From Escherichia coli (GTDB lineage Bacteria; Pseudomonadota; Gammaproteobacteria; Enterobacterales; Enterobacteriaceae): a stretch of 49,174 bases of DNA. The translations under genes were made by a program, and so were the position numbers. Below the pieces are notes generated by a model. The model was not told the origin of the DNA. It did not search any database and saw only the letters and a program-made list of their open reading frames with translations. The stretch is from NCBI RefSeq assembly GCF_003334255.1, contig NZ_QOWU01000040.1; one strand, written 5' to 3'. Below, piece by piece: positions 7,646-48,718 of the stretch; position 1 is the first letter of the stretch, and the number at the start of each line of letters is the position of its first letter.

Positions 7646-7829
<184 letters not shown>

Positions 7830-13283: not shown

Positions 13284-15526
<2,243 letters not shown>

Positions 15527-17957: not shown

Positions 17958-18719
17958 TTACAGCAGACGACGCGCCGCTTCCACCACGATTTTCACCGCA
18001 TGGCTTTCGGTTTGTTTCATCGTCTCAGCATTCGGGATCTCTTGCTGGGTGCGGTTAACGATAACACCCGCTACCATACCGGCACGCAGGCCCTGACTTG
18101 CACACATGGTCAGCAGGGTTGCAGATTCCATTTCATAGTTCATTACGCCCATCGCCTGCCACTCTTCCATAGAACCTTTAAAGTGACGAACTACGCGACC
18201 AGAGTAAGTATCGTAACGTTCCTGACCTGGGTAGAAGGTATCAGAAGAAGCTGTCACGCCAACGTGAGTTGTCGCGCCAATGGATTTCGCAGCTTCAACC
18301 AGCGCAGTCGTACATTCGAAATCAGCGACAGCCGGGAATTCCAGCGGTGCGAAGTGCAGGCTCGCGCCATCCAGACGGACAGACGCCGTGGTAACCAGGA
18401 CATCACCCACATTAATATGCGGCTGAATAGCGCCCGTTGTACCGATACGCAGGAAGGTGCGAATGCCCAGCTGTGCCAGCTCTTCAACAGCAATAGAGGT
18501 AGACGGGCCGCCGATACCGGTAGAGCAGACGATAACAGGTTTACCATCCAGCTCTGCACGCCAGGTAGTGAATTCGCGGTGAGATGCCAGCTTAACCGGC
18601 TTATCCATCAGCGCGGCGATCTTTTCCACACGATCCGGGTCGCCAGGGACGATGGCAAGCGTAGCCCCTTGTAAATCGTTTTTAGTGAGGCCGAGATGAA
18701 AAACATCAGACTTGGACAT
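17958..18719 (-). CDS. udp: Uridine phosphorylase
   Basis: Track ORF 17958..18725 (MYMSKSD...). Start trimmed to the second ATG ([19 protein letters not shown]), 253 aa. Confidence 0.95.
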
Positions 18720-18792
18720 ATACAACTCCTCTGTGAATCGGTTTAGTCAGAAGAAGCAAAAAGACACTTTACCGAAGGGTTTAACATTTTTT

Positions 18793-18860
18793 CGTGATAC
18801 TCATCACCATGACGCAAATGCGTTGCATAAATTTACCCACCAAAAGTGATGCAAATCACA
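18793..18860. promoter_or_regulatory. Tandem CRP sites of the udp promoter (CytR/CRP-type module)
   Basis: cGTGAtactcaTCACc at 18793..18808 and aGTGAtgcaaaTCACA at 18845..18860, centres about 52 bp apart, upstream of udp on the minus strand. This is the classical spacing of CytR-regulated promoters. Confidence 0.55.
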
Positions 18861-18980
18861 TAAATCACCCTTCATTCTGCAGGACTGCATAAAAGATGAG
18901 CCGATTCAGGCAATGTGATTTGTTGCATGCTGACTATAGTTAACATTGCGCAACATTTTTATAAGGGTACGGAGAATACC

Positions 18981-19796
18981 ATGGCAACAACACAACAATC
19001 TGGATTTGCACCTGCTGCATCGCCTCTCGCTTCGACCATCGTTCAGACCCCGGACGACGCGATTGTGGCGGGCTTCACCTCTATCCCTTCACAAGGGGAT
19101 AACATGCCTGCTTACCATGCCAGACCAAAGCAAAGCGATGGCCCACTGCCAGTGGTCATTGTAGTGCAGGAAATTTTTGGCGTGCATGAACATATCCGCG
19201 ACATTTGTCGCCGTCTGGCGCTGGAGGGGTATCTGGCTATCGCACCTGAACTTTACTTCCGCGAAGGCGATCCGAATGATTTTGCCGATATCCCCACGTT
19301 GCTTAGCGGTCTGGTAGCAAAAGTGCCTGACTCGCAGGTGCTGGCCGATCTCGATCATGTCGCCAGTTGGGCTTCCCGCAACGGCGGCGATGTTCATCGT
19401 TTAATGATCACCGGATTCTGCTGGGGTGGACGTATCACCTGGCTGTATGCCGCGCATAATCCACAGCTAAAAGCCGCAGTGGCGTGGTACGGCAAACTGA
19501 CGGGCGACAAGTCGCTGAATTCACCGAAACAACCTGTTGATATCGCAACCGATCTTAACGCGCCGATTCTCGGCTTATATGGTGGTCAGGATAACAGCAT
19601 TCCGCAGGAGAGCGTTGAAACCATGCGCCAGGCGCTGCGGGCTGCTAATGCGAAAGCAGAGATTATCGTGTACCCGGACGCCGGGCATGCATTCAACGCT
19701 GATTATCGCCCGAGCTATCATGCCGCATCTGCAGAAGATGGCTGGCAGCGTATGCTGGAATGGTTTAAGCAGTATGGTGGGAAGAAGTCGCTGTAA
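18981..19796 (+). CDS. ysgA: Dienelactone hydrolase family protein (putative carboxymethylenebutenolidase)
   Basis: Track ORF 18915..19796. Start trimmed to the ATG at 18981 ([14 protein letters not shown]), preceded by GGAGAA, giving 271 aa. Confidence 0.85.
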
Positions 19797-43997: not shown

Positions 43998-44383
43998 GAC
44001 GTATCGCCTGATTTGCTACCCGTCATGACTGTGATTCCGCCAACATCAACGGTAACACGCGGCATTCGGGATATTTCGTATGTCAAAGGTAACCGTTACC
44101 ACTTTTCGCGCCTGGTTTTTTTAGTTTCACGACGAAAAAATGGTCTAAAACGTGATCAATTTAACACCTTGCTGATTGACCGTAAAGAAAGATGCGCTAC
44201 ATACAAGTGTAGCACCGTTTATTCTCTGTAAATTCCTTATTACAACGGCGTGAAACGCCTGTCAGGATCCACTGCCAGACCTCATTTTACGGTTTGCGCA
44301 GGCGTCTACGTTTCACCACAACACTGACATCACTCTGGCAAGGATGTTAGGATGGACCACGGATGATAATGACGGTAACAAGC

Positions 44384-48501: not shown

Positions 48502-48718
48502 CCTGATATATAAAAAAACGCCTGCTCTTATTACGGAGCAGGCGTTAAAACAGGTCTGTATGACAACAAGTGGGTGCTTCACTCAACGTTGTGTCCATGG
48601 TGTCTGATGAGGCATAAGCGACATCTGTCAGTGGACGATAAGCACCGTAAACGGCTCTGCGTCATTCCGGAGTTTATGAGGCACTAAGGCGAACATAAGA
48701 GATGGAATGAGCATCTAC
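48502..48718 (-). ncRNA. glmZ: GlmZ small regulatory RNA (activator of glmS translation; formerly SraJ/RyiA)
   Basis: Minus strand reads GTAGATGCTCATTCCATCTCTTATGTTCGCC ... GACCTGTTTTAACGCCTGCTCCGTAATAAGAGCAGGCGTTTTTTT, which I recognise as GlmZ, including its intrinsic terminator (10-bp stem plus T7). No ORF on this strand. The span includes the whole T-run, so the 3' end is approximate. Confidence 0.85.

Follow-up and report, generated by a model that had tools for sequence, protein, structure and literature searches.

Two genes, udp (uridine phosphorylase) and ysgA (also known as dlhH, a member of the dienelactone hydrolase family), are transcribed away from each other in Escherichia coli, and the question raised by this locus is whether the CRP and CytR sites located upstream of udp also control its divergent neighbor. 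We have addressed it within a stretch of 49,174 nucleotides (contig NZ_QOWU01000040.1, hereafter the window). Both genes were recognized from their open reading frames and from the RefSeq annotation: udp on the minus strand (17958–18719, ATG at 18719) and ysgA on the plus strand (18981–19796, ATG at 18981), the latter preceded by an SD sequence GGAGA at 18971–18975. The pair is flanked by rmuC and metE. The divergent region that the first-pass annotation had delimited at 18720–18980 turns out to be exactly the 261-bp intergenic region between the two ATGs. The segment 18600–19100 is 100% identical to that of K-12 MG1655, and none of the 5,426 complete E. coli genomes lacks it. Published coordinates were converted with the relation NC_000913.3 = 4,035,150 minus window position, and those given for U00096.2 were shifted by +1977 beforehand.

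Upstream of udp, the first-pass annotation had described two CRP half-site pairs about 52 bp apart, and these are indeed present as two 16-mers resembling TGTGA-N6-TCACA, namely CRP1, the proximal site (CGTGATACTCATCACC, 18793–18808, centered at 18800.5), and CRP2, the distal one (AGTGATGCAAATCACA, 18845–18860, centered at 18852.5). Their centers are separated by 52 bp, within the approximately 50–53 bp expected of CytR/CRP promoters. Counting matches to the CRP consensus with up to two mismatches yielded 10 in the 49-kb window versus 18.8 expected from shuffles; such counting is uninformative here, and a position-weight matrix was therefore used instead. This matrix is symmetric and was derived from 105 sites of an ETEC ChIP-seq study, with the two udp entries excluded. 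In the matrix scan, which had been proposed along with the initial description, the udp boxes obtained the best (CRP2, 16.9 bits) and second-best (CRP1, 13.2 bits) scores among the ca. 49,000 positions of the window. The third-best score, 11.5 bits, fell on CGTGATCAATTTAACA at 44151–44166, a sequence that the ETEC ChIP-seq table gives as the CRP site of hemC/cyaA. Pairs of at least 8 bits each, 50–54 bp apart, were seen in 10 of 300 dinucleotide shuffles, and shuffled pairs equal in strength to the one observed at udp would be far rarer.

Published binding records coincide with both boxes. They are the reverse complements of the two udp CRP sites of RegulonDB, an activator site at −41.5 and a dual one at −93.5, both given in a supplement of Shimada et al. 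(2011), and an ETEC CRP ChIP-seq peak labeled ysgA/udp contains the two boxes. Genomic SELEX has likewise yielded clones and a chip peak for CRP at the udp locus (Shimada et al., 2011, supplement). A reading of the two boxes as chance matches devoid of function could appeal to the consensus count, which falls below the shuffle expectation, but it is confronted with their first and second ranks in the matrix scan, with a spacing of 52 bp that is invariant across 63 sequences (see below) and with the ChIP-seq, SELEX, and RegulonDB records. We give it practically no credence, since published evidence of binding has already refuted this reading.

The RegulonDB positions of −41.5 and −93.5 imply a udp start at window position 18759. 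With the start taken from these literature-derived positions, CRP1 occupies −41.5, a class II position, and CRP2 −93.5. The −10 hexamer TAAAGT lies at 18766–18771 on the minus strand (−12 to −7) and reaches at least 80% conservation among 63 sequences, and the udp 5′ leader (18720–18759, minus strand) is well conserved too. A Salmonella MarA ChIP-seq peak labeled dlhH<>udp carries the motif GCTTCTTCTGACAAA, which corresponds to the beginning of this well-conserved leader (18744–18758, minus strand), where E. coli has GCTTCTTCTGACTAAA. A generic scan for sigma-70 promoters together with a terminator scan of 18600–19500 gave no matches; both known promoters, those of udp and ysgA, are devoid of a −35 element.

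Between the two CRP boxes, the published udp CytR operator oligonucleotide GTAAATTTATGCAACGCATTTGCGTCATGGTG matches exactly at 18805–18836 (minus strand); this natural 32-mer is the one used in NMR and binding studies. It contains two octamers, TATGCAAC (18822–18829) and TTTGCGTC (18811–18818), also read on the minus strand and separated by a 3-bp spacer (GCA, 18819–18821). The octamer consensus for CytR is GTTGCATT. The CytR-type tandem CRP architecture previously attributed to this region is thus corroborated, the CRP boxes being identical to the RegulonDB sites and the 32-bp operator matching at its place between them.

The way in which these elements work together has been described in the comparative-genomics paper on CytR, where udp figures as a member of the CytR regulon, only the proximal CRP site is required for its activation, and CytR alone is said to bind DNA weakly and to require flanking CRP. 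In the published scheme, cAMP-CRP occupies the two udp sites centered at −41.5 and −93.5, the proximal one acting as a class II activator site that substitutes for the −35 element. CytR settles on the weak inverted-repeat operator TATGCAAC-GCA-TTTGCGTC between them, touching both CRP dimers and turning an activating complex into a repressing one, from which cytidine frees it. Relief of udp repression by cytidine is credited to Brikun et al. (1996) in the CytR comparative-genomics paper. All these steps are published, and the anatomy of the sequence and its conservation are the only parts that come from the present analysis.

To place the region in a broader context, we compared 80 udp loci, one genome per species. 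In 78 of them ysgA is the divergent neighbor of udp; the two others, both from Rahnella (L080 and L081), are the only ones without a ysgA homologue within 2.5 kb upstream. The distance between CRP1 and CRP2 is 52 bp in all 63 distinct intergenic sequences from Enterobacteriaceae and 52–53 bp in Yersiniaceae and Hafniaceae, the latter values agreeing with the 30–31 bp gap given in the CytR comparative-genomics paper. Across the 63 sequences, conservation is concentrated in the leader and −10 of udp, the two CRP boxes, the TTGCA/CAA cores of the CytR operator, and a separate block close to ysgA. A further block at 18886–18913, TGCA(C/T)AAAAGATAG...GGCA(A/C)TGTG, located upstream of the ysgA −10, is kept in Escherichia, Citrobacter, Salmonella, and Enterobacter and is not conserved in genera further away; it might serve as an UP-like element or as the binding site of some factor.

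The ysgA-proximal block has the consensus G-n-C-TATA(G/T)T-TA followed by TGCGC, and in E. coli it corresponds to a −10 region G-A-C-TATAGT-TAA at 18932–18943 on the plus strand, with C-TATAGT-TAA at 18934–18943. C18934 and the T, A, T, A, and T of the hexamer are invariant in the 57 sequences compared, while T18941 and A18942 are conserved in 56 of them. The same number keep TGCGC (18947–18951, plus strand), a motif that spans the putative start of transcription at G18948. No −35 element is conserved, and AATGTG, the hexamer found 17 bp upstream, agrees with TTGACA at none of its six positions. Sigma-S-selective promoters are marked by a C directly before the −10 hexamer and by TAA after it, and TCTATACTTAA is reportedly their extended −10 consensus. 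The ysgA promoter presents precisely this combination, with the C before the hexamer, the TAA after it, and no −35. As one paper also counts ysgA, in a secondary statement, among the genes of the RpoS regulon, the promoter looks sigma-S-dependent, a view based on its sequence and on that single statement.

The start at G18948 was obtained by mapping through the alignment the transcription start of Salmonella, where a dlhH reporter begins at the mapped position and the 5′ UTR measures 31 nt. A different value arises from the "overlap length 225" given by Conway for the divergent units, which would bring the 5′ end of ysgA near 18926, about 22 nt upstream of 18948; no convincing −10 is seen ahead of 18926. 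The choice between these starts matters for the position of the CRP boxes, as CRP2 would be centered at about −95.5 from 18948, but at −73.5 from 18926. CRP1 would lie at −147.5 from the start at 18948, and with that start neither box would occupy a canonical class I or class II position. In the arrangement that we propose, ysgA would be transcribed in the direction opposite to udp from a promoter of its own, whose −10 hexamer begins 82.5 bp beyond the center of the distal CRP site.

The first-pass annotation had also suggested that ysgA, sharing this region, may be co-regulated by CRP. In its most explicit form, the distal box would be bifunctional, activating the ysgA promoter in a class I-like manner as well, so that ysgA would follow cAMP-CRP and would possibly be subject to anti-activation by CytR. 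The established class I positions of CRP are −61.5, −72.5, −82.5, and −92.5, and the class II position is −41.5. A single CRP molecule can serve divergent promoters, the absence of a −35 in the ysgA promoter recalls activator-dependent promoters, and, were the 5′ end near 18926, CRP2 would fall at −73.5, close to, though not at, a class I position. The value of −95.5 obtained with the start at 18948 is instead 2–3 bp off the class I face, and a candidate at the class II position for ysgA (around 18895–18910) has a matrix score of −2.5 bits. The only other CRP-like sequence close to ysgA, at 18914, reaches 5.7 bits and is kept in Escherichia and Citrobacter alone. The idea of CRP control for the gene opposite udp is itself an earlier one, put forward in general terms by Shimada et al. 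(2011), whose group C includes udp and for which regulation of the opposite gene was "not ruled out"; ysgA also appears alongside udp among the top CRP predictions of PhyloScan. On the other side, the ysgA promoter has a sigma-S-like appearance, the RegulonDB 6.0 connectivity used in one study assigns udp to Crp and ysgA to FNR, and the literature search found nothing that connects the expression of ysgA with crp or cytR. Neither ysgA nor udp has an entry in the supplements of the Crp ChIP-exo paper. A separate FNR box for ysgA was considered and discarded, the sole FNR-like matches in the intergenic region being the CRP boxes themselves.

Spacing across species bears on the same point. CRP2 and the ysgA −10 are 82.5 bp apart in 32 of 57 sequences and 10 of 20 clusters, a clear mode that favors a bifunctional CRP2. 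Against this, other genera depart from the spacer length by −11, −9, −7, +6, +9, and +13 bp, half-turn shifts included. When the sequences were collapsed to 20 clusters and the CRP–ysgA spacer was set against control spacers, the gap between CRP1 and CRP2 was at its mode of 36 bp in all 20 clusters, with no range at all, whereas the spacer separating CRP2 and the ysgA −10 was at its mode of 74 bp in 10 (range 63–87 bp). The ysgA leader, from −10 to ATG, was at its mode of 35 bp in 9 (range 32–59 bp); the spacer is no more tightly held than this leader. The candidate status of the 82.5-bp distance as a special constraint was weakened by this clustering and by the control spacers. In Yersiniaceae, moreover, CTATAGT has remained beside ysgA, with CRP2 now 122–315 bp away, and no additional strong site for CRP is seen.

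The 52-bp distance between the CRP sites is the only strict spacing rule visible in the region and belongs to the udp module. As the spacer towards ysgA is no better conserved than the leader and is uncoupled in Yersiniaceae, the ysgA promoter appears as an autonomous element. Spacing and conservation thus weakly disfavor co-regulation of ysgA by CRP, and we regard a bifunctional CRP2 as unlikely. Of what had been claimed for the region, the tandem CRP/CytR arrangement upstream of udp holds, with its published sites, while the extension to ysgA finds no support in the variable spacer or in the position of CRP2, which changes with the putative start. The 82.5-bp mode among Enterobacteriaceae could still be a trace of some coupling between CRP2 and ysgA.

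A direct action of CytR at ysgA has to be weighed as well, since the region contains a second element, GGCAA-N9-TTGCA, with the CytR-octamer-like GTTGCATG at 18922–18929 (plus strand). This octamer lies inside a weak CRP-like 16-mer, TGTGATTTGTTGCATG (18914–18929, plus strand), which overlaps the −35/spacer region of the ysgA promoter. The core of the octamer, GTTGCAT, is rare, with 3 copies in 49 kb versus 10.8 expected, and two of the three lie within the 261-bp region, at 18822–18828 and 18922–18928, in the same orientation and exactly 100 bp apart. GTTGCATG agrees with GTTGCATT at 7 of 8 positions, and CytR accepts between 0 and 11 bp between half-sites. However, the 16-mer scores only 5.7 bits (rank 56), below the 10th percentile of the ChIP-seq sites, and is probably not a functional CRP site. 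CytR, for its part, binds weakly alone and needs flanking CRP. Besides, the TTGCA core is present only in Escherichia and Citrobacter and is replaced in Salmonella and Enterobacter, and ysgA was not flagged by the comparative CytR study, nor does it have an entry in its supplement. Direct CytR control of ysgA through this second element and the weak 16-mer seems very unlikely to us.

A more restricted proposal is that, in Escherichia and its close relatives, CRP2 doubles as an upstream activator site for the sigma-S-type ysgA promoter, to which the octamer at 18922–18929 might contribute. We hold this to be rather improbable. If it were true, cAMP-CRP and CytR would tie a stationary-phase hydrolase to nucleoside catabolism, and the modal spacing of 82.5 bp would be the imprint that such a link has left in evolution.

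There is a further layer of control at ysgA that acts after transcription. The gene is a verified target of GcvB R1, and dlhH is a target of SdsR in Salmonella; the ysgA mRNA is controlled post-transcriptionally by GcvB and, in Salmonella, by SdsR. Directly after the start codon there is a CA-rich stretch, GCAACAACACAACAATC (18984–19000, plus strand), with which the GU-rich R1 of GcvB likely pairs. Elsewhere in the window, Rfam matches at the gathering threshold were obtained on the minus strand for three RNAs, Erse sRNA (14921–15172, 319 bits), GlmZ (48512–48718, 218 bits), and naRNA4 (7698–7775, 92 bits).

The two genes might also be coupled not by shared protein sites but by overlapping divergent transcription, in an excludon-like manner, whereby a transcript starting at about 19150 would cross the ysgA promoter and form RNase III-sensitive dsRNA with the 5′ region of ysgA. 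A published dsRNA cluster obtained by p19 capture does lie here, at 19007–19159 (U00096.2 4014014–4014166), where the ysgA mRNA overlaps a transcript running in the direction of udp; it depends on RNase III, belongs to the stationary-phase top 20 and is detected by dsRNA immunoprecipitation too. Inside ysgA, a start in the udp direction is placed at 19150/19151 (minus strand) by the antisense TSS of Thomason, 4014022(+), and by the operon start of Conway, P 4014023 (U00096.2), which agree within 1 nt, and a −10 hexamer TACAAT is found in the sequence at 19158–19163 (minus strand), at the correct distance from the antisense start. But this hexamer is limited to Escherichia (4 of 77 loci), the synonymous positions being free elsewhere, the literature search found no reported functional consequence for either gene, and the presence of dsRNA does not amount to regulation. 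We consider such a coupling of the two genes unlikely.

Overall, we are confident that the region is the characterized E. coli udpP and that ysgA is transcribed from a separate promoter in the opposite direction, a common intergenic region not being enough to couple it to CRP or CytR. The finding is already known, and what we have re-discovered is a classic model promoter of combinatorial control by CRP and CytR. As for ysgA (dlhH), which encodes a conserved protein of the dienelactone hydrolase family, if it were shown to be driven by sigma-S, with or without CRP, and trimmed by GcvB, SdsR, and the antisense transcript, this would make a mildly useful annotation.

Among known systems, the CRP–CytR–CRP complex of E. 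coli udpP (Brikun et al., 1996; RegulonDB) is the same locus, with identical CRP boxes and CytR operator, and nothing is different here, in keeping with the full identity of 18600–19100 to K-12 MG1655. The promoters deoP2, cdd, nupG, tsx-P2, ppiA, and rpoH resemble that of udp in having CRP sites approximately 50–53 bp apart with TTGCA-type CytR repeats between them and in using CRP both as activator and as co-repressor. They vary in the spacing of the CytR half-sites, which is 3 bp in udp compared to 0 in deoP2, 9 in nupG, and 11 in rpoH, and udp differs from other CytR promoters in that its activation requires the proximal CRP site alone. As for the divergent arrangement, araBAD-araC, gcd-hpt, and guaBA-xseA (Shimada et al., 2011) are similar to udp/ysgA in having CRP boxes in a short divergent spacer, although in those cases both promoters have documented CRP dependence and suitably positioned sites, whereas for ysgA both are at most putative. 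The ysgA promoter is like sigma-S promoters in its C-TATAGT-TAA and its missing −35, and the gene has been called a member of the RpoS regulon. A CRP-activated promoter of the sigma-S-dependent kind is that of csiD, where CRP is located at −68.5, compared to approximately −95.5 for ysgA, if CRP acts on ysgA at all.
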